Below are positions 3,851-11,784 of a DNA stretch of 25,402 nucleotides, piece after piece. The translations under genes and the position numbers were made by a program. The stretch comes from a virus. The first letter of the stretch is position 1; each line of letters starts with the position of its first letter. The notes under the pieces were generated by a model. The model worked only from the letters and a program-made list of their open reading frames with translations. It did no database searches and was not told where the DNA came from. The stretch lies in UHGV virus genome UHGV-1747320; one strand, given 5' to 3'.

Positions 3851-4019
3851 ACATAGCAAGACTAAAAGCCAATGATTAACCATACGCTATAGCGCAATAT
3901 AACGCGTTTTAAGCGCGTTAATGTGTTAAGTAATGGGTATGTACTGGTAAGGATATAAAAGCGCGTCTATGGCGTTATTTTGGCGCTTATTTTTATGTTG
4001 TTGGAGTGAGTTAAAGACA

Positions 4020-4047
4020 ATAAAAAACGCGCCATCATTGGCGCGTT
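4020..4047 (-). terminator. Rho-independent terminator for the leftward operon (stem AACGCGCC/GGCGCGTT)
   Basis: 8-bp inverted repeat 4026-4033/4040-4047; the minus strand reads hairpin then TTTTTT. Confidence 0.6.
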
Positions 4048-4065
4048 ATGGTGGGAGTATTGGAA

Positions 4066-4103
4066 ACGAAAAAAGCGCCCATAGTGGGCGCTCGATTTTA
4101 TTT
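4066..4103. terminator. Bidirectional terminator (stem AGCGCCC/GGGCGCT, loop ATAGT) flanked by A-run and T-run
   Basis: Stem 4074-4080/4086-4092; minus strand gives hairpin plus TTTTTT, plus strand gives hairpin plus T-rich tail. The 20-nt core is repeated in inverted orientation at 4571-4590. Confidence 0.65.
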
Positions 4104-4554: not shown

Positions 4555-4570
4555 CTTTAAAGCTCCTTTA

Positions 4571-4591
4571 AAGCGCCCACTATGGGCGCTT
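4571..4591 (-). other. Intergenic hairpin AAGCGCCC-loop-GGGCGCTT, inverted copy of the 4072-4092 terminator core
   Basis: Exact 20-nt match to the reverse complement of 4072-4091; sits between two co-directional leftward genes, so it is a candidate attenuator or processing site. Confidence 0.5.
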
Positions 4592-4602
4592 AATTCCATT
4601 AA

Positions 4603-5253
4603 TTACGCTTTGAAAGCATCAGCTAGATAATTGTAGAAATCATTCTTGATAAAGCGATATTGCTGCGTACCAGCTTTGGCGCTTCCCATTCCTTTGACTT
4701 TCTCAACAAGTCCAAGACGTTCGCAAAGATTGATCAACTGGTTGGCTTGAGTATAGCCAGCGTCCAATTTAATCTCACACGCTTTTTTAGCTTCATTCAT
4801 TAAATCGAAAACAGCGCCATTAGTGAACGTGTCGATCTCGTCGTTAATCATATCGATTAAAGCAAATACACGAGATCCTGACATATCAGCGACGGAATAA
4901 GTGCATTTGCCAGATTTAATTGATTTAACCAGATAAACCAGTTTTTCCAGAGAATAACTATTAGTCATTGCATCACGGAAAAATACTTCTGGCGCTTGTT
5001 TGCTTGCTTTAATCGCATAGTAGAAAACAGAGCATAATTTTTCGTCTTCTACAGCGTTTACAACGTTGTTGGTGAAGTAAGCAAGTTTAGTGGTCGCAGC
5101 TTGCATATTTGCTTTGTCTGCTTTGGTGTGCGTACCATTTTTATAATGTTCGTTATATGTTTGAGTTGCCAGATCTGCTTTTTCGCGCAGCTCGTCGGAT
5201 ACAATAGATGCAGCTTCAATGATGGACTTTTTAGAAATGATAATGTTAGCCAT
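4603..5253 (-). CDS. Hypothetical protein (216 aa); C-terminal region may be a helix-turn-helix or winged-helix
   Basis: ATG at 5253 (minus) with AAGGA RBS; sigma70-like promoter upstream; codon usage consistent with the phage core. Confidence 0.7.
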   Translation of the reverse strand: MANIIISKKSIIEAASIVSDELREKADLATQTYNEHYKNGTHTKADKANMQAATTKLAYFTNNVVNAVEDEKLCSVFYYAIKASKQAPEVFFRDAMTNSYSLEKLVYLVKSIKSGKCTYSVADMSGSRVFALIDMINDEIDTFTNGAVFDLMNEAKKACEIKLDAGYTQANQLINLCERLGLVEKVKGMGSAKAGTQQYRFIKNDFYNYLADAFKA

Positions 5254-5311
5254 GATTTCAATCCTTAGTATAAAATTTAATTGTCGTTAGCGATTTCGCT
5301 TTCGATGAGTC

Positions 5312-5350
5312 CAATTATCGATATGAGAAAAAAGATTGCAAGCGTTTTTT
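5312..5350 (-). promoter_or_regulatory. Sigma70-like promoter for the 4603..5253 gene (-35 TTGCAA, 17-bp spacer, -10 ATAATT on the minus strand)
   Basis: Read on the minus strand as TTGCAA-N17-ATAATT about 60 nt upstream of the start; a 13-nt poly-T run lies just beyond (about 5348-5360). Confidence 0.45.
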
Positions 5351-5493
5351 AATTTTTTTTTTTTTTTGCAGGGCGAAAGTCCTAGAAATAAATACGAGAT
5401 CGTCGAAGGTGTTCCCTAAATAAATAATCGATTCCGACTTTAGACCTTATATATTTATACGGGGTAGAATTGAAAGAGTATAAAATGAATGGC

Positions 5494-5527
5494 GTGTAAA
5501 ATAATAACCGGACTTAGCCGGTTATTA
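5494..5527 (-). terminator. Rho-independent terminator for the upstream leftward operon (stem TAATAACCGG/CCGGTTATTA)
   Basis: 10-bp inverted repeat 5502-5511/5518-5527; the minus strand reads hairpin then TTTTAC. Confidence 0.6.
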
Positions 5528-5540
5528 CCCTTATAGGAAT

Positions 5541-5840
5541 TTACATCTTTTTTGCATAGTTCCTGATTTCTTTTATTATATATTCCTGAAAACGCTCCGA
5601 GTTTTCGCATTTGTCTTTTGAAGACTCATCAAGTCCCAACTTGCATCCCGCAACGATCAGTCCATCTTGATATGCAGCGCCTAAAGCCATGCTTAGGTCT
5701 AACATGCACAAATCGTAGTCTTCCGCCTTTGAACACAACTCTGTAGAGACACGTTGCACTCGTTCAATGCTATTTTCTTGAGAAAATGCGGAAGAGCTAA
5801 AAATGAAAGTTAAGAATGTGAATGCTGCTACAGTTTTCAT
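5541..5840 (-). CDS. Small secreted protein with N-terminal signal peptide and four conserved Cys (99 aa); paralog of 5916..6212
   Basis: N-terminus MKTVAAFTFLTFIFSSSAFSQ is signal-peptide-like; AGGAT RBS; shares the pattern C-x8-C-M-x2-L-S-x-A ... C ... C-E with the neighbouring gene. Confidence 0.65.
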   Translation of the reverse strand: MKTVAAFTFLTFIFSSSAFSQENSIERVQRVSTELCSKAEDYDLCMLDLSMALGAAYQDGLIVAGCKLGLDESSKDKCENSERFQEYIIKEIRNYAKKM

Positions 5841-5849
5841 ATCAATATC

Positions 5850-5908
5850 CTAAAACGGTAAAATTCGGTCAACCAAATCGAAGAAAACAAGAATTTTTCT
5901 GCCGTCTT
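5850..5908. repeat. Copy B of an about 58-bp direct repeat; the second copy at 6215-6274 encodes the C-terminus of the 187-aa protein
   Basis: Sequence GGTAAAATTCGGTCAACCAAATCGAAGAAAACAAGAATTTTTCTGCCGTCTT differs by about 2 mismatches from 6223-6274. In copy B the reading frame still spells ...DGRKILVFFDLVDRILPF-stop, a gene 3-prime remnant. Confidence 0.7.
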
Positions 5909-5915
5909 CATACAT

Positions 5916-6212
5916 TTATCGGACTGACTCTACAGCCTTACGATTGGTGTCAAAAAGCGTATCAACGAACAGCAATGAAGAGTTGTTCAATTCACATGGT
6001 TCATAATTTTCCACCTGTTCACATAGTTGAGCGGTCTTACCTATGTTTATCCCTAGTTTTACTGCTGCTGAAAGTTGAAACATGCAAACTGGAATATTCT
6101 GAGACGTTGAGCATACGTCATGCATCAGCGACTTAATAATTGCAATATCATCCTTTGCATTGGCTGAAATTGAGTAAACTAAAAATAATGATGTCAATAG
6201 TATCGATTTCAT
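5916..6212 (-). CDS. Small secreted protein with signal peptide and four conserved Cys (98 aa); paralog of 5541..5840
   Basis: N-terminus MKSILLTSLFLVYSISANA; weak RBS; conserved Cys spacing shared with the paralog. Confidence 0.6.
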   Translation of the reverse strand: MKSILLTSLFLVYSISANAKDDIAIIKSLMHDVCSTSQNIPVCMFQLSAAVKLGINIGKTAQLCEQVENYEPCELNNSSLLFVDTLFDTNRKAVESVR

Positions 6213-6214
6213 AA

Positions 6215-6274
6215 CTCAAAAAGGTAAAATTCGTTCAACCCAATCGAAGAAAACAAGAATTTTTCTGCCGTCTT
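6215..6274. repeat. Copy A of the about 58-bp direct repeat (overlaps the stop and last about 19 codons of 6216..6779)
   Basis: See 5850-5908. Confidence 0.7.
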
Positions 6275-6779
6275 TCAACTTAAGTGTGACTAGGCAGGCA
6301 TCAACGCCATCTGACGTTCCCTCAATTTCGCGGCCGTCTGCCATGTAGACCCTTATAGATTGGCCGTTTTGATAAGCCTTGCGACATATCTTAAAAAAAT
6401 CACGACGTGATGGCTGGTTGTCTACATAGTCAGGGTGTATTGTTAGTCTCCCTTTGAAATCGTAATCAATGCCATCAATTACGCCTGATTCAATTGTGCT
6501 AATGCGCTCAAGTGGGAGCCTTATACGATTTTCTTTGTCAAATGGAGTTGGACAAAGGTCAACTTTGTTACGAGATGACATGAGACCATAAACGTACATG
6601 CAAAACACTTGGCCGTCTTCGAGAGTGACTCTTACAGGAAATTTAGCCCTCCGCCAGAAGAGCAAGGTGCGTTCAGCATGTTCGTAGTCTCGCGGCCATA
6701 CTTCAGCCGGTATGCCGTAGGTGATATCTTTCGTCGTCATATCATTATAAAGTGGTTGGCAATATGTCCATTGTACCAT
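6216..6779 (-). CDS. Hypothetical protein (187 aa; possible alternative start at 6740)
   Basis: Long ORF without recognisable catalytic motifs; the C-terminal stretch SIRVYMADGREIEG...LVTLKLKDGRKILVFFDWVERI looks beta-rich; no clear SD for either start. Confidence 0.55.
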   Translation of the reverse strand: MVQWTYCQPLYNDMTTKDITYGIPAEVWPRDYEHAERTLLFWRRAKFPVRVTLEDGQVFCMYVYGLMSSRNKVDLCPTPFDKENRIRLPLERISTIESGVIDGIDYDFKGRLTIHPDYVDNQPSRRDFFKICRKAYQNGQSIRVYMADGREIEGTSDGVDACLVTLKLKDGRKILVFFDWVERILPF

Positions 6780-7164
6780 CCCAGGTAGTGAAAACCCGAT
6801 ATGTTTTCGAATCGCCCTGCTTTAGCTTTATTTCTCGTTCCATCCTGGAGGGGTTAAATGCGCAAAGACCTGAACTTTCAATTGATGTCCCAACGATCCA
6901 CTCTCCTTCGTTAAGGTAGAAAGTTGCTTTTTCACCAGGTTCTAGCTTTGCAGCCGTTTCTCCATTGATGAAAATGGAAGCGTTACATGCAGAACCAACC
7001 AGCCCTTTGTCTCGAACTATTGTTAGACTAGACTCATGTGGTGTTTGATATTTAAATATTCTGCTTTGAGGTGCATCCTTTGCCTTTGAAATAGATATAG
7101 ACGAAGACGAACACCCAATTAGTGACGTGGTTAGCATTAGAATCATTAAGTTTTTTGCTTTCAT
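6745..7164 (-). CDS. Putative lipoprotein (139 aa) with lipobox L-I-G-C
   Basis: N-terminus MKAKNLMILMLTTSLIGCSSS: hydrophobic signal followed by a lipobox Cys; AT-rich codon usage. Confidence 0.65.
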   Translation of the reverse strand: MKAKNLMILMLTTSLIGCSSSSISISKAKDAPQSRIFKYQTPHESSLTIVRDKGLVGSACNASIFINGETAAKLEPGEKATFYLNEGEWIVGTSIESSGLCAFNPSRMEREIKLKQGDSKTYRVFTTWDGTMDILPTTL

Positions 7165-7191
7165 ATTTGATTGACTATGATTAGTGAGTGG

Positions 7192-7740
7192 TTACATGCT
7201 ATTCTGAGTTCTGTTGTAAATATCTTTTAAGAGGTCATCTCTTTTTATGTTTTTACAGACTTTGTCGAAACTTAATTCACCTGATGATATGCAGTTGTTG
7301 TATTTTTCGATAAAATTTTTTAATGCCAGATGATTTTTGAAAAGAAAAGAAAAACCATAGGGTGACGTGCTATCTCTTATCCATTTCCGAGCACTGGGAT
7401 AAGTGTATAAATTTGAATGCAACTCCAATTTTCCAGGGGCCACGCCATCACAGGAGTCCATAATAGCGAACATTTTTGATATATCAAAAGGATAAAAGAC
7501 TACTCCGCAATTTGTCCTGGTGCCTTCAATATCTTTCACGTATATATAGTGTTCATAACGATCTTTACGTGAAGTCTTTAACCTGTATTGTATTAGTTTG
7601 TGCTCTTCTTTTTGAGAAGAAGTTAGGTGTCTAGGGTTTTCTAAGCAAGATTTCTGTTTATTTTTTTTATGATAAAAATCCACACAGTCCTTTATTTCCT
7701 TTGCACTTAAAAATCTCTTATCAAAAGGTAAGTGACCCAT
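7192..7740 (-). CDS. Hypothetical protein (182 aa), AT-rich, no recognised domain
   Basis: ATG at 7740 (minus) with GGAGG 5 nt upstream; Lys/Asn/Tyr-rich composition. Confidence 0.6.
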   Translation of the reverse strand: MGHLPFDKRFLSAKEIKDCVDFYHKKNKQKSCLENPRHLTSSQKEEHKLIQYRLKTSRKDRYEHYIYVKDIEGTRTNCGVVFYPFDISKMFAIMDSCDGVAPGKLELHSNLYTYPSARKWIRDSTSPYGFSFLFKNHLALKNFIEKYNNCISSGELSFDKVCKNIKRDDLLKDIYNRTQNSM

Positions 7741-7844
7741 TCATGCCTCCGGTTCTAAACATAGGTAAGCCTACAAATATCGTTCAGCCAATCAAGATCT
7801 TTTTTCAGCCGGAGGTATATGTTTCAAAAAACGTGACGAATGTC

Positions 7845-7874
7845 ACATGCAGGTGCTCTCATACACCTGCATGT
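7845..7874 (-). terminator. Perfect 11-bp stem hairpin (ACATGCAGGTG / CACCTGCATGT) just downstream of the 7881..8447 stop; terminator or attenuator candidate
   Basis: Inverted repeat 7845-7855/7864-7874 with an 8-nt loop; on the minus strand a T-run follows about 13 nt later. Confidence 0.45.
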
Positions 7875-7880
7875 AGACTA

Positions 7881-8447
7881 TTAATCATTCAATAATCTAT
7901 ATTTTCTTTTGATTAAATCTTCACCTTTTTTGGTGAACACAAAACCAAATTGCGATTTTTTGTTTAGACGAAGGACTCTATTATCCAACGCATCGGTTGA
8001 TGGAATCAATGTTTGATCATCTATCCAATTAAGTAGCGTAAGAAAGTTCAGCAGCCTCAACGTTGTTGTGCGAAGCTCTTTCGATATATTTTCAATGCTG
8101 GCAATTCGTCTTTCTTTTTTCTCAGGTGGTACAGATAATTGTTCTTGAGATTTCGTGGATAGATAATCAATTTCGTTTGCTGCATCGAATGATATGTGAG
8201 GCGTAATTTTGCTAAAAAAGCCTTTCGCTGACTCACTTGATAATAAACCAGATCTATTCATATCGTTTGTTATTCTGTACAGGAGTGGACTGTGTTTCAT
8301 TTCAGGATAACGTTGATAAAAGTTAAGCAATTCAAAAGCAGCATTAGCACCAACAAGAAAATCAGAAGGATCGCTGACTTTCCAGAACGAATGATTTTTC
8401 TTAGCGCCAGTGGTGTCAACAAATGATAATTCTTTTAACCAACTCAT
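7881..8447 (-). CDS. Hypothetical protein (about 188 aa), AT-rich, no recognised domain
   Basis: Track ORF 7881..8480; ATG at 8447 is preferred because AAGGAG is 6 nt upstream. The start region lies inside an 11-bp-stem hairpin. Confidence 0.6.
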   Translation of the reverse strand: MSWLKELSFVDTTGAKKNHSFWKVSDPSDFLVGANAAFELLNFYQRYPEMKHSPLLYRITNDMNRSGLLSSESAKGFFSKITPHISFDAANEIDYLSTKSQEQLSVPPEKKERRIASIENISKELRTTTLRLLNFLTLLNWIDDQTLIPSTDALDNRVLRLNKKSQFGFVFTKKGEDLIKRKYRLLND

Positions 8448-8480
8448 GATGTGCTCCTTTCTAACAAGTGAGCACATCAT
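8446..8480 (-). promoter_or_regulatory. Hairpin sequestering the RBS and start codon of the 7881..8447 gene (arms ATGATGTGCTC / GAGCACATCAT)
   Basis: Perfect 11-bp inverted repeat 8446-8456/8470-8480 with a 13-nt loop; in the mRNA the AAGGAG SD and the AUG fall in the loop edge and 3-prime arm. Confidence 0.5.
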
Positions 8481-8512
8481 AGAATTAGTATATAGGGGGT
8501 AAATATGAAATG

Positions 8513-8791
8513 TTACGGCAACCTGCTCAGTATTTCCTCTAGATCTTTTTTTGTCATATTGGAGTTTTCATAGATGCGCATGATTTTCTCACGCGTCTTA
8601 GCGGAAACCCCAACGGCAGATGTAACTTTGTCAAATTCAGCCATAGTCATCGTCTCCAGAATGGCATTGATAACTTCAGCCTTAGACATCTTGATTTTTT
8701 TCTCTTTGAGTTTTATTTGAAATTTTCCAAGTTTTTCATTGGCCTTATCAGACAATGCCACTTGGCAATAAGTTGTTTTCTTTTCGCTCAT
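8513..8791 (-). CDS. Small protein (92 aa), possibly ribbon-helix-helix-like DNA-binding; translationally coupled to the helicase
   Basis: ATG at 8791 lies 2 nt after the helicase stop (8794-8796). The fold guess is from a strand-helix-helix-like pattern (TYCQVAL ... SKAEVINAILET) only. Confidence 0.55.
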   Translation of the reverse strand: MSEKKTTYCQVALSDKANEKLGKFQIKLKEKKIKMSKAEVINAILETMTMAEFDKVTSAVGVSAKTREKIMRIYENSNMTKKDLEEILSRLP

Positions 8792-8793
8792 AA

Positions 8794-10353
8794 CTAATCT
8801 CGTTTCAGAACTCCAAAATCGAATGCGCCATCAACAGGCAATACACCTTCTGCAAAGCCAGGTGTGGTGTCGATGATGTGTTTTCGCTCATAAGAGTGAG
8901 ACAACAGGTATTTGTTGCTAATGTCAATGAAATCAGTGATAAAACACACGTTTGCCTGATTCTTCTTGGCTCGTAAGCCACGACCGACACGTTGTCTCAT
9001 TTCAACTTCTGCTTTCCCACCACCAGCAAGAATGACCGCACCAACGCTTGGCACATCAACACCGACATCCAGAATAGTCGAGCCTATTAAAACATCTATT
9101 TCTCCAGACGCTAAACTGTTCAGCTTTGCTTGCCTTGTCGCTTGGTTCGATTCCCCATAGATGAAGTCAACTCTAAGGCCGGACTCCTTCATCATCTCCA
9201 TCAGGATTTGCCCGTGGCGTTTAAGACGAACCAGAGTCATGCAATTGAGAGAATGTTGCTTATAGAGCAATGCTTCGCGCACAATGGCCTCGTTACGTCC
9301 CAAATTATACACGATCCCCAACTGATAAGCCTTTTGGTAGGCAGTGCTCATACCTACTCTAAAATTAAGGTGTTTGTTGGCAAGTTCCGCCTTGATTCTG
9401 ACCTCGTCTGGCTTGTAGGCAACTTTATGATAAAGGAAGTACGGTTTTGCCAGAATGCCTCGATCAATCAGGTACTTTTCCGTGACTTTTATTTCAATTC
9501 GCCCAGCCACTGCCATCAGACGCATGTTGGCTTCCGTAGAATCCTTCATGAACGGCGTTGCCGTAAGCGCCAGACGATAGTCTGCGTTCACACATAATCT
9601 GGCAATGTCATAGAAATTAGAACCTGAAGACTCATGCGCCTCTTCCAGAATAAGCAGAGACACACTTGAAAGGAAGCGTTTCACCAAGTCCCGACGTTTG
9701 AGGTGGTAGCTCTTCTTATCTGGAGTTGCATCGCGTGGTGGTTCTTCAAGGAAACTTGCCAGAGTTTGAACTGTTGCGACGTTGATATGTCGTGATACCT
9801 GGAACTCACCCGAGCCAATGACTCCAACCTTTTGGTCCTTTAACCACGGTTCGCCATTTTCGGCGCGGTAGTCGATGGATCTCTGGAAGTTTTCGGCCAT
9901 TTGAAACATCAGAACAGAGCGGGTTGTTAAAAATAATGTCATTCGACCGATACGTGCAGCTGCTTTGCAGGCAACGTTAGATTTCCCACCACCAGTAGCG
10001 ATCTGGGCAATCATCATTCCCTCGCGAACTAGTGTTTCCACAGCCTGATCCTGATATGCATAATCAGGATTGTATGGGAATGGGTTAACCGCCGGATTTG
10101 GCTTTCCAAGCGCCGGGGCTTTGTCTTTGCGGATATGAACACATTTGATGCCCGCCTTGTTCAAGTTCGCCGCTACAGGCTTGGCAAAGCCAGCAGGGAA
10201 CGAGTTTTTACTCCAGTTGAACATCGTGCTTGTGCCCTTCCAGTCGCCAGTCTCGACTTCGTAGCTCAACATCTGTTGCACCAGTTGCTTTACCTTGTCA
10301 TCTGCGCCAGAAATAAGCGCATTAACTGCGTTAGATACAATCCGAACAGTCAT
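8794..10353 (-). CDS. Superfamily 2 (DEAD/DEAH-type) DNA helicase (519 aa)
   Basis: Motif I ATGGGKS, motif II LILEEAHE, motif III TATP, motif VI QRVGRGLR are present in the canonical order. Confidence 0.85.
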   Translation of the reverse strand: MTVRIVSNAVNALISGADDKVKQLVQQMLSYEVETGDWKGTSTMFNWSKNSFPAGFAKPVAANLNKAGIKCVHIRKDKAPALGKPNPAVNPFPYNPDYAYQDQAVETLVREGMMIAQIATGGGKSNVACKAAARIGRMTLFLTTRSVLMFQMAENFQRSIDYRAENGEPWLKDQKVGVIGSGEFQVSRHINVATVQTLASFLEEPPRDATPDKKSYHLKRRDLVKRFLSSVSLLILEEAHESSGSNFYDIARLCVNADYRLALTATPFMKDSTEANMRLMAVAGRIEIKVTEKYLIDRGILAKPYFLYHKVAYKPDEVRIKAELANKHLNFRVGMSTAYQKAYQLGIVYNLGRNEAIVREALLYKQHSLNCMTLVRLKRHGQILMEMMKESGLRVDFIYGESNQATRQAKLNSLASGEIDVLIGSTILDVGVDVPSVGAVILAGGGKAEVEMRQRVGRGLRAKKNQANVCFITDFIDISNKYLLSHSYERKHIIDTTPGFAEGVLPVDGAFDFGVLKRD

Positions 10354-10400
10354 AAACCTCTTTCCTTAGTGCCTTTTGTATGTTATTTGGCTATTATAAT

Positions 10401-10419
10401 AAGTAAGTGATTACTTAGT
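10401..10419. promoter_or_regulatory. AT-rich imperfect palindrome (TAAGTAAGTGATTACTTAG) in the divergent promoter region between the helicase and ParB-like operons
   Basis: Follows a TATAAT hexamer at 10395-10400; member of the GTAAGTA palindrome family. Confidence 0.4.
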
Positions 10420-10435
10420 GGATTGTAGCAATAAA

Positions 10436-11116
10436 ATGGATGTAAAAATCACGATTTTGCAGGTTGATGTTGCCAACCTTCGCCCGAATACCTGGAACAC
10501 CAATTCGGTTGGTGCGCAGAATTTTGAAAAACTGAAAGGTTCTATCGAAAAATTGGGCTTTTTTAAGCCAATTTTGGCTCGTGAACTTGAAGATGGATTT
10601 TTTGAAATCCTCGGCGGCGAACATCGCTGGCGTGCTGCTATTGAGCAAGGAATTTCAACGGTTCCGGTGCTTTCTGTGGGCAAAATTAGCGATGTCGTAG
10701 CTAAACAGATGTCACTGGTGGACAACGAGCGATACGGTGAAGACGACCAAATCGCATTGCAACGCTTCATTGAAGAAATTCAGTCAGAACTTGACTATCA
10801 ACTGTCTGAAATTGCCCCGTATGACGACGAAATCTCGATGGTTTTAGCAAAAGAGGCGGCAATCGACCTTGAAGCACTGGAGGCGTTGTCTCGTGGTAGT
10901 GATGAGCCTGTCGATACCGACAAACGAGAGAAAACCGAACGTGTGGGTGCGGAACATCAGACCATGCGCTTCAAAGTAACTTTCGATGCGTCAGATCGTG
11001 TTGCAGAAACCATAAAAAACATCATCAAAGAGCAGGCTATTAACACCGGTAATGAAATGGAGAACGCTGGTGAGGCTCTGGTGTGGCTGGTCGACTACTA
11101 CAAGGAGCGTATGTAA
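10436..11116 (+). CDS. ParB/Srx-like N-terminal domain protein (about 226 aa)
   Basis: Signature FEILGGEHRWRAA (ParB GxxRxxA box); acidic C-terminal half. Track ORF begins at a GTG at 10418; ATG at 10436 used here. Confidence 0.75.
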   Translation: MDVKITILQVDVANLRPNTWNTNSVGAQNFEKLKGSIEKLGFFKPILARELEDGFFEILGGEHRWRAAIEQGISTVPVLSVGKISDVVAKQMSLVDNERYGEDDQIALQRFIEEIQSELDYQLSEIAPYDDEISMVLAKEAAIDLEALEALSRGSDEPVDTDKREKTERVGAEHQTMRFKVTFDASDRVAETIKNIIKEQAINTGNEMENAGEALVWLVDYYKERM

Positions 11117-11784
11117 TGACCAAAAAGTTTGAAATCGTATATCGCGACCCGGCAGATCTTATTCCCTATGAGATGAATGCCAAAAAGCATGATGAACAGC
11201 AGATCCGAGATCTGGCCGCAGCCATTAAAAAGCGCGGATTTGACCAGCCAATTACGGTCGATAAGAACGACGTAATTATTACTGGCCACGGCCGCCGTGA
11301 GGCTGCAATTTTTGCTGGACTTGAGCGCGTACCGGTTATTGTTCGCGATGATCTCAGTGATGACGAGGTTCGTGCGAAGCGCCTTGAAGATAACCGACTT
11401 GCCAGCATTGATTACGATGCAATTAAGCTACAGAAAGAACTTGAGTCGCTTGTTCTGGACGATATCGAGGTTTTCGGCTTTGAAGAGCGTGAGTTGAATG
11501 TTCTCGTTGGCAGTATGACAGAAGAAATGGACACCGATTCGCTAGTTATCGATCTTGGCGAAGAAACTAAACGACAGAAGGATGAACACACCGAGATCAG
11601 TCGTGAAGTTGCAGCGGAAGAAGTACGTGTTGTCGACGTATTGGGCTTTAAAACGCTCCCTGCTGGCTCTGCCATTGTTGTTGGTGATTTGCTTGCCCAC
11701 ATGGAAGAAATGACGGGAGAAAGCGGGGTAGACGCATTTGTGGCATATGCGGAGAAGATCTCTTCCGGGGAGATGGCTGCATGA
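11116..11784 (+). CDS. Second ParB/Srx-like domain protein (about 222 aa)
   Basis: Signature ITGHGRREAA; AAGGAG 8 nt upstream of ATG 11116; start overlaps the upstream stop (TAATG). Confidence 0.75.
   Translation: MTKKFEIVYRDPADLIPYEMNAKKHDEQQIRDLAAAIKKRGFDQPITVDKNDVIITGHGRREAAIFAGLERVPVIVRDDLSDDEVRAKRLEDNRLASIDYDAIKLQKELESLVLDDIEVFGFEERELNVLVGSMTEEMDTDSLVIDLGEETKRQKDEHTEISREVAAEEVRVVDVLGFKTLPAGSAIVVGDLLAHMEEMTGESGVDAFVAYAEKISSGEMAA

Follow-up and report, generated by a model that had tools for sequence, protein, structure and literature searches.

We examined positions 5254 to 8800 of the virus genome UHGV-1747320, whose full length of 25,402 nucleotides is referred to here as the window, and compared them with 88 related loci containing p92, fljA, and p216. 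The comparison indicates that this stretch is a recombination-prone accessory segment of a leftward helicase operon, with two slots of gene cassettes arranged around a core gene of the FljA family. The backbone order is helicase, p92, slot A, the fljA-like gene, slot B, a terminator, a conserved promoter region, and p216. This structural statement is the one that the aligned sequences support best. A fuller explanation, which we regard as moderately probable, adds to the shuffled two-slot architecture an FljA-like protein that would repress translation from an mRNA leader, cassettes whose products would act in the envelope, and a nuclease-less form of a restriction-type domain, p182. The features are as follows, with G+C content (GC) and G+C content at third codon positions (GC3) as fractions and protein lengths in amino acids (aa).

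8513–8791, minus strand: p92, backbone gene directly downstream of the helicase gene and right edge of slot A (phrog_1466, E = 1e-45; GC 0.38)
7881–8447, minus strand: p188, first cassette of slot A, cytoplasmic (phrog_13473; 199 aa from an upstream ATG)
7831–7874, minus strand: two hairpins in tandem with a terminal T6, resembling an intrinsic terminator, downstream of p188 and internal to the region
7192–7740, minus strand: p182, rare second cassette of slot A (phrog_31250)
6745–7164, minus strand: lipoprotein of 139 aa, third cassette of slot A (phrog_890 'lipoprotein', E = 8e-51)
6216–6740, minus strand: FljA-family protein of 174 aa, the conserved anchor (PF03614, phrog_1444; the open reading frame to 6779 gives 187 aa)
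5916–6212, minus strand: sec98, secreted four-cysteine protein of 98 aa, first cassette of slot B (phrog_9536)
5845–5908, minus strand: fljA 3' remnant, the last 18 codons and stop codon of fljA with the native fljA–sec99 junction
5541–5840, minus strand: sec99, secreted four-cysteine protein of 99 aa, second cassette of slot B (phrog_27673, E = 1e-61)
5494–5527, minus strand: terminator-like hairpin at the end of the fljA unit, where the variable region has its left edge
5254–5493, minus strand: conserved regulatory region of the p216–p82–p56 unit, conserved family-wide
4603–5253, minus strand: p216, conserved backbone gene (phrog_1513; GC 0.389, GC3 0.369)

Architecture of the region

Slot A, from p92 to fljA, spans 108–2937 bp across the 88 loci and about 1770 bp in the window; slot B, from fljA to p216, spans 291–2056 bp, about 960 bp in the window, and never falls below 291 bp. 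From one locus to the next, each of the genes for p188, p182, the lipoprotein, sec98, and sec99 is variously found, missing, or substituted by a divergent allele. In the relatives, slot A holds p188 (29 loci, in two allele classes, at 96–100% identity or as an allele of 42–43%), members of a superfamily comprising p182 (4 loci), proteins of 191/204 aa (9 loci) and 162 aa (7 loci), and a 377-aa protein, as well as lipoproteins of 139–145 aa in either orientation, a lipoprotein of 266 aa encoded on the opposite strand, and a 117-aa secreted protein. The families found in slot B include sec98 (24 loci, 44–99% identity) and sec99 (13 loci), and many cassettes in both slots encode exported proteins or lipoproteins. 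Where the flanks of a relative are 95–98% identical to the window, homology breaks at 5543, 5910, 6218, 6731, 7767, and 8447/8538, which are gene boundaries. The cassettes differ in their histories: Klebsiella elements have sec99 at about 90% identity, another E. coli lineage has sec98 and the lipoprotein at about 60%, and a third set of relatives shares p188. The alignments show that whole genes pass in and out of the two slots through recombination between co-resident relatives, and that the fljA allele is exchanged along with them.

Slot B contains a 64-nt direct repeat (5845–5908 and 6211–6274, 91% identical), of which the copy between sec98 and sec99 aligns with the fljA 3' ends of two loci (L005 and L018) in which sec99 directly follows fljA; the junction is exact. 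By its sequence, this remnant is a recombination scar, implying that an fljA–sec98 module replaced most of the fljA gene that preceded sec99, and this replacement accounts for the tandem sec98–sec99 paralogs.

An original prediction, made from the sequence of the window, had described positions 5254–8800 as an AT-rich island with a shift to A/T-ending codons, acquired as moron or hotspot cargo and bounded by hairpins. The composition was borne out by calculation. GC is 37.6% (0.376) in this stretch and 47.7% (0.477) in the rest of the window, making it the lowest-GC stretch of its size (the lowest 3547-bp stretch of the whole sequence starts at 5201), and GC3 is 0.30–0.44 (mean 0.37) in the seven genes from p92 to sec99 versus 0.42–0.59 (mean 0.49) in 20 core genes (Mann–Whitney p = 1e-4). 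The named reading frames of 182, 188, 187, 139 (lipoprotein), 98, and 99 aa are all present on the minus strand, and the upstream gene matches the helicase families ResIII, DEAD, and Helicase_C. The low GC, the shifted GC3, and the hairpins or terminators at 5494–5527 and 7831–7874 all speak for the whole of 5254–8800 being one recently acquired foreign island, a moron inserted into the operon. We nevertheless consider this very unlikely, as it is already contradicted by the comparative data: the fljA-like gene at its center and p92 at its right end occur in essentially all relatives, the cassettes differ in origin as described above, and the internal scar shows stepwise assembly. The genes p216 and p82, outside the supposed island, are equally AT-rich. 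Low GC runs on leftward to about 4000 across these two conserved genes, a bump of 0.44–0.45 at 6250–7000, corresponding to the FljA-like gene, breaks the low-GC stretch, and the conserved backbone genes p216, p82, and p92 are as AT-rich as the cargo (cargo GC3 0.30–0.40); low GC looks like a regional trait common to conserved genes and is a poor marker of cargo. What stands of the earlier description is a hotspot in which p188, p182, the lipoprotein, sec98, and sec99 vary among relatives; what does not is a single island, since the fljA-like gene and p92 are core and the AT-richness is not specific to cargo. Both hairpins are real, and the one at 5494–5527 is the left edge of the variable region, whereas that at 7845–7874 is internal, lying between p188 and p182.

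The product of p92 had been called ribbon-helix-helix (RHH)-like, a label that Pfam did not support: no RHH family matched at E ≤ 0.1, nor did the protein belong to any other Pfam family, and phrog_1466 carries no function. The gene is present in nearly all relatives at 36–100% identity.

Identity and distribution of the element

In megablast searches of phage records, 90% of the window aligned with Escherichia phage CMS-2020a at 96% identity, and PhiR41_1 and Cyrano matched at 94–96% nucleotide identity. Megablast also matched Klebsiella phage-plasmids such as pJN2-26 at about 79% identity, and Salmonella phage SSU5 to the right half of the window. The gene order, with ParB-like genes and the structural module running rightward and the helicase operon leftward, is common to the window and its annotated relatives, including SSU5-type Klebsiella phages. 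On account of this nucleotide identity, the synteny with reference members, and the plasmid location of matching DNA, the window is an SSU5-supergroup (pSLy3-type) phage-plasmid of E. coli; the group has been described (bioRxiv 10.1101/2025.09.12.675607; PMC12429562).

Island DNA was matched in 241 of 5426 complete E. coli genomes, every time on plasmids of ~105–115 kb, and 652 plasmid records from Escherichia, Klebsiella, Enterobacter, Yersinia, Salmonella, and other genera match it. The full set of p188, p182, lipoprotein, sec98, and sec99 was found at ~97–98% identity in the E. coli plasmid pSTEC388_1 and, with about 90% coverage, in ~5 further E. coli plasmids. The cassette combination of the window is a minority allele, nearly intact in only about 6 E. 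coli plasmids. The region as a whole is an ordinary mosaic accessory locus around a known and annotated core gene, already in public records.

Some matches carried other taxon labels. Contigs assigned to Bacillota and to 'Candidatus Fimivivens' metagenome-assembled genomes (L013 and L014), together with a protein labelled Gemella morbillorum (P0097), represent enterobacterial phage-plasmid genes, with a helicase 82–92% identical; P0097 is chimeric beyond residue ~70. These labels probably reflect binning or assembly contamination.

The FljA-like gene

The 187-aa reading frame was among those for which the original prediction had recognized nothing. Its product matches Pfam PF03614 (Flag1_repress, repressor of phase-1 flagellin) over the entire profile (1–170 of 170) with E = 4e-80 and 268 bits against a cutoff of 24, and phrog_1444 with E = 1e-97. 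Each of the other proteins likewise falls into an existing PHROG family. Because the Prokaryotic Genome Annotation Pipeline (PGAP) annotation and all homologs begin there, the gene probably starts at the ATG at 6740, giving 174 aa. Protein searches returned 82 FljA-like clusters, nearly all on contigs of 100–115 kb, some of them named 'repressor of fliC' in S. Typhi. The nearest flagellin-linked relative is encoded directly downstream of a flagellin gene on the Salmonella Senftenberg linear plasmid pCFSAN004025.2 (35% identity, 171 aa, E = 5e-33). The window protein keeps the motifs YG..AE.WPR(D/E)Y at the N-terminus, R(R/K)DFF.IC in the center, and FDWV.RI at the C-terminus. No relative of the family with a solved structure was found. 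Tandem Sm-like repeats inside FljA, prompted by an LSM match with E = 0.045, were considered and rejected, as a comparison of the two halves by hhalign gave E = 0.048 with a probability of 1%.

In a tblastn search, the FljA-like gene was present in about 835 plasmid records (Klebsiella 345, Escherichia 229, Enterobacter 92, Yersinia 62, and Salmonella 60); the Yersinia records include pMT1 of Y. pestis CO92, and Shigella is also represented. The backbone gene p216 was present in 815 plasmid records with the same genus spread, and on this basis the FljA-like gene is core to the family and not cargo. Loci L018–L097 had been retrieved with FljA as bait and contain it by construction; the case for universality of the gene is based instead on the count for p216, which is independent, and on those relatives that the whole window retrieved.

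A chromosomal FljA-like protein (P0091, 49% identity) was considered as the product of a flagellar-locus gene and rejected, its context being a degenerate integrated piece of a phage-plasmid. In a stretch of E. coli chromosome CP125919 (385–398 kb; L015), degenerate copies of p92, p188, and the FljA-like gene are 38–49% identical and contain frameshift-like stretches; the stretch appears to be a fragment of an SSU5-type element that integrated and is decaying, and not a flagellar locus.

The alleles of fljA are far more divergent than their surroundings. Comparing the window with three loci (L004, L001, and L003), synonymous divergence (dS) was 0.49–0.93 in fljA versus 0.12–0.22 in the helicase gene and p216, and for another pair (L005 against L079) it was 2.2 in fljA and 0.04 in the flanks. 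Overall, fljA dS was 3–50 times that of the flanks, and the ratio of nonsynonymous to synonymous divergence (dN/dS) was 0.09–0.23 across the compared pairs, showing that the fljA alleles are old, have been selectively maintained, and have moved between near-identical backbones. They usually travel with a given lipoprotein or secreted-protein set.

Putative role of the FljA-like protein

In the flagellin-linked branch of the family, the plasmid-borne FljA(z66) is a post-transcriptional repressor of fliC, and a pBSSB1 derivative renders motile E. coli non-motile (PMC2652032). Homology to such characterized relatives makes it most likely that the FljA-like protein blocks the translation of an mRNA by binding its 5' leader. 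If the host is a motile E. coli, fliC would be the likeliest target, and the element would then switch off flagellin synthesis, with effects on motility, flagellin antigen, and flagellum-dependent phages.

Several observations weigh against flagellin repression. The gene is equally conserved and intact in phage-plasmids of classically non-flagellated hosts, namely Klebsiella (345 records), Y. pestis pMT1 (among the 62 Yersinia records), and Shigella, which makes it unlikely that its role stops at host flagellin. The window has no flagellin gene near it, its neighbors being the genes for the helicase, the lipoprotein, and the secreted proteins. Identity to the flagellin-linked FljA is only 35%. 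In S. Typhi CT18, the plasmid pHCM2 includes the gene, and the strain is motile nonetheless. Searching the window with the E. coli K-12 fliC leader gave only chance-level matches of 8–12 nt and no internal target, and in an Rfam scan of the whole window no family reached its gathering score. Full-text literature searches combining FljA with SSU5, pHCM2, or phage-plasmid, and searches for the annotation phrases, found no functional work on this FljA clade.

The same Rfam scan gave a sub-threshold match to the small RNA Hrs1 at 4019–4085 on the plus strand (32 bits, gathering score 56, E = 0.002). The match coincides in part with the convergent terminator hairpins, which lie outside the region, and probably is an artefact of hairpin structure.

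Conservation in non-flagellated hosts, together with the swapping of alleles, makes a target within the element a serious rival. The FljA-like protein would then regulate the phage-plasmid itself, as an RNA-binding translational repressor of the element's own mRNAs (e.g., for lysis–lysogeny, replication, or cargo), and any effect on flagellin would be absent or incidental. We consider this possible, if less than probable. The gene is core irrespective of host motility, with a genus spread equal to that of p216; two alleles on near-identical Klebsiella-type backbones differ under purifying selection (dN/dS 0.09); its deep allelic classes are swapped with the neighboring cassettes, as is usual for specificity or immunity modules; and it sits in an operon with the helicase gene and not with a flagellin gene. 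Set against this, no candidate RNA target emerged, the island containing neither a fliC-leader-like sequence nor an Rfam or other conserved structure, and the motifs in common with flagellin-linked FljA have been retained. All characterized family members act on fliC (PMC2652032).

A bolder combination, which we hold only tentatively and think unlikely, treats the FljA-like protein as an RNA regulator with allele-specific targets, either an immunity switch of the element or a silencer of host flagellin on entry, and the p182 domain as a new specificity domain for HNH restriction nucleases, whose nuclease-less copy here would serve as a decoy or inhibitor. An allele-specific regulator would explain the core status of the gene in non-flagellated hosts, the swapping of deep alleles and envelope cassettes between near-identical backbones, and the purifying selection. 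Repression of translation from an mRNA leader, with fliC as a candidate target in E. coli, is the reading that we prefer.

Cassette proteins

The families of p188 and p182 are narrowly distributed, with 10 and 6 clusters, respectively, in 5.8 billion proteins. The phrog_13473 alignment starts at residue 12 of the 199-aa p188 reading frame, and the conserved C-terminal region of p188 resembles a winged helix, as judged by eye only. Its AlphaFold2 (AF2) model, with a predicted local distance difference test score (pLDDT) of 41, was unusable, and a profile search of the PDB gave no relative. The p182 gene, preceded by a GGAGG ribosome-binding site, is present in 40 of about 815 family plasmids. 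Its product contains no Pfam domain, and fold searches with its AF2 model (pLDDT 65) were uninformative. Remote homology and structure prediction, as proposed in the original prediction, thus gave the FljA family for the 187-aa reading frame and no fold for p182 and p188.

A p182 profile matched five proteins in 1.84 billion representatives. One of these, P0099, consists of a p182 domain at residues 1–171 followed by an HNH module (PF01844, above cutoff); another candidate, P0101, is a repetitive membrane protein and was regarded as spurious. In relatives, the slot of p182 is occupied by distant paralogs of 191/204, 162, or 377 aa. The 377-aa protein, on plasmid NZ_CP027369, combines a divergent p182-type domain with HNH PF01844 and is annotated by PGAP as an HNH endonuclease. 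The HNH modules of P0099 and the 377-aa protein look nearly identical on reading the sequences, their identity not having been computed, and the HNH part of the fused relatives matches the PADLOC model 'Type IV methyl-directed restriction enzyme' (mREase_IV) with E = 2e-5. The window's p182 ends before the HNH module, and no nuclease remnant lies downstream. From these sequences, we infer that p182 is a nuclease-less form of the variable N-terminal domain of a McrA-style HNH nuclease.

These fusions, in the slot that p182 occupies here, raise the alternative that p188 and p182 are conflict genes, acting in anti-restriction, as a decoy, or as a defence sensor without its nuclease, and that the hotspot is mainly a defence/anti-defence locus. 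Defence-type cargo does occur in the same slots of relatives: the 377-aa HNH endonuclease (L098, 4299–5432) is one case, and slot B of a distant relative (L097) encodes a 343-aa SMEK-domain protein (PF21941 E = 8e-30; PADLOC 9e-28). The very narrow distribution of the families and the high diversification of the N-terminal domain into four subfamilies, with an HNH part nearly alike by eye in two fusions, point the same way. The absence of the nuclease domain and of any remnant from the window's p182 counts against it, as do the structure models, which gave no fold assignment, and the PADLOC search of the window, in which nine proteins had no match, p182 among them, and p188 had only a chance-level match to SspC (E = 0.004). 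On balance, we judge a primarily defensive locus unlikely; a function of the cargo in superinfection exclusion or anti-defence is a guess. The fuller explanation that we favor is itself weakened by the weak structure models (pLDDT 65 and 41) and by the cargo proteins having no significant relative in Pfam, NCBIfam, PADLOC, or the PDB.

The third cassette of slot A encodes a protein with a lipoprotein signal, MKAKNLMILMLTTSLIGC, comprising the lipobox LIGC with Ser at +2, in which the Cys is invariant in 7 homologs. Homologs range from 31% to 99% identity, some of them encoded on the opposite strand. Four of the seven family members match DUF2846 (PF11008) weakly, with a best E of 0.003 and all under the 34.3-bit cutoff; a PDB profile search with the family gave no match.

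In slot B, sec98 and sec99 each have a signal-peptide-like N-terminus and four Cys in the mature part. Their description as paralogs was confirmed as a distant relationship (BLASTP E = 2e-5; hhalign E = 2e-5, probability 77%), with the cysteines aligned. No Pfam or PDB match was found for sec98. Klebsiella phage-plasmids carry sec99 at 89–91% identity, and most close E. coli relatives lack it. From their localization signals and the slot cargo of relatives, the exported lipoprotein and four-cysteine proteins would act in the envelope, plausibly as exclusion or host-interaction factors.

That the cargo reading frames are decaying, non-functional leftovers of recombination is the least probable of the readings considered, and we regard it as most improbable. 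There is one true remnant (5845–5908), and sec98 is not called by PGAP in the near-identical pSTEC388_1; but all five reading frames are intact, each has intact homologs at 44–93% identity with conserved cysteines, lipobox, and motif columns, and they are tightly packed and have ribosome-binding sites. A 104-aa reading frame antisense to sec98 (5822–6136, plus strand) is conserved only in pSTEC388_1 and is probably not a gene.

Transcription units and flanking genes

The hairpin at 7874–7845 (dG −24.7 kcal/mol, z −4.9) abuts a second hairpin with T6 at 7848–7831, and p188 would thus have its own terminator. The conserved flank of p188-bearing relatives extends down to 7767, and 7741–7830 contains only a weak promoter-like match, as judged by eye. 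At the other end, the hairpin at 5527–5494 (dG −15.3 kcal/mol, z −3.3) has a 3' arm and T-run that are conserved family-wide irrespective of the upstream gene, and a breakpoint at 5541/5543 recurs among relatives. Since this hairpin and the following 240 bp are conserved, the variable region would end at the terminator, and p216–p82–p56 would form a separate unit, ending at the bidirectional terminators at 4026–4093. The 240 bp (5254–5493) contain direct repeats of the form TATTTATTT.TAGG.AC..TTCG (about 5427–5402 and 5395–5374), an A15 tract (5367–5353), a promoter-like site TTGCAA-16-GATAAT (5341–5314), a ribosome-binding site, and a conserved CATCGAAAGCGAA..CGCTAACGA leader. By these elements, the region looks like an operator/promoter for a regulator.

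A GC-rich palindrome, AAAGCGCCCA(TAGT/CTAT)GGGCGCT, occurs twice, in the terminal bidirectional terminator (4068–4096) and between p216 and p82 (4570–4600). As the latter copy falls within the first 15 codons of the 82-aa p82 reading frame, p82 probably starts at Met16, giving 67 aa, the length in phrog_6145. This 67-aa protein bears the PHROG label 'MIT family metal ion transporter', which looks like an annotation error.

The rightward operon opens at 10418–11784 (plus strand) with two consecutive genes for ParB N-terminal-domain proteins of 232 and 233 aa, which overlap by 34 nt. The first lies only 64 bp from the helicase start, leaving a compact divergent control region at 10354–10417.

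Significance

SSU5-type phage-plasmids are present in about 4% of complete E. coli genomes; they also occur in lineages of S. Typhi, Shigella sonnei, and Klebsiella that are of clinical importance, and Y. pestis pMT1 is one of them (bioRxiv 10.1101/2025.09.12.675607 and plasmid records); essentially all of them carry the FljA-like gene. Should the protein repress flagellin, carriage of these 'cryptic' elements would change the motility of the host, its expression of H antigen, its stimulation of TLR5, and its sensitivity to flagellotropic phages; should it not, a major plasmid family would possess an uncharacterized regulator that binds RNA. For new exclusion or defence genes, the two slots across the ~800 family plasmids offer a practical search ground.

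Comparison with known systems

The FljA-like protein resembles Salmonella FljA (fljBA operon) and FljA(z66) of pBSSB1 in its full-length PF03614 match, its similar size of 174 aa, and the shared motifs, and FljA(z66) is also encoded on a mobile element. It differs in that the window gene does not follow a flagellin gene, has no invertible promoter, lies inside a phage-plasmid helicase operon, belongs to a separate clade, and is kept in non-flagellated hosts too. Within the SSU5 supergroup (SSU5, pHCM2, pMT1, pSLy3, CMS-2020a/PhiR41_1/Cyrano, and pJN2-26), the window is a member at 79–96% nucleotide identity, and the FljA-like gene is already annotated there as 'putative repressor of phase 1 flagellin' or 'transcriptional regulator'; what sets the window apart is its five-cassette combination, a minority allele in the group.

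Relatives of p182 resemble McrA-like type IV restriction enzymes, in that a p182-type N-terminal domain is followed by a CxxC...HAHH...CxxCH HNH finger, whereas the p182 of the window lacks the HNH module and its N-terminal domain matches no known DNA-modification reader. T5 Llp and Cor of phi80/N15 are phage-encoded lipoproteins that block receptors. The lipoprotein of the window is likewise a small outer-membrane-type lipoprotein in an accessory position of a temperate phage, but no sequence similarity to them was shown. With prophage morons and accessory or defence hotspots, the region shares fixed sites between core genes, presence or absence of genes in close relatives, and defence-type genes in some alleles; its composition would be deviant and its terminator-like hairpins its own, as in such hotspots. 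In contrast to these, the hotspot described here surrounds a conserved gene whose allele is itself exchanged, and the flanking core genes share its low GC.

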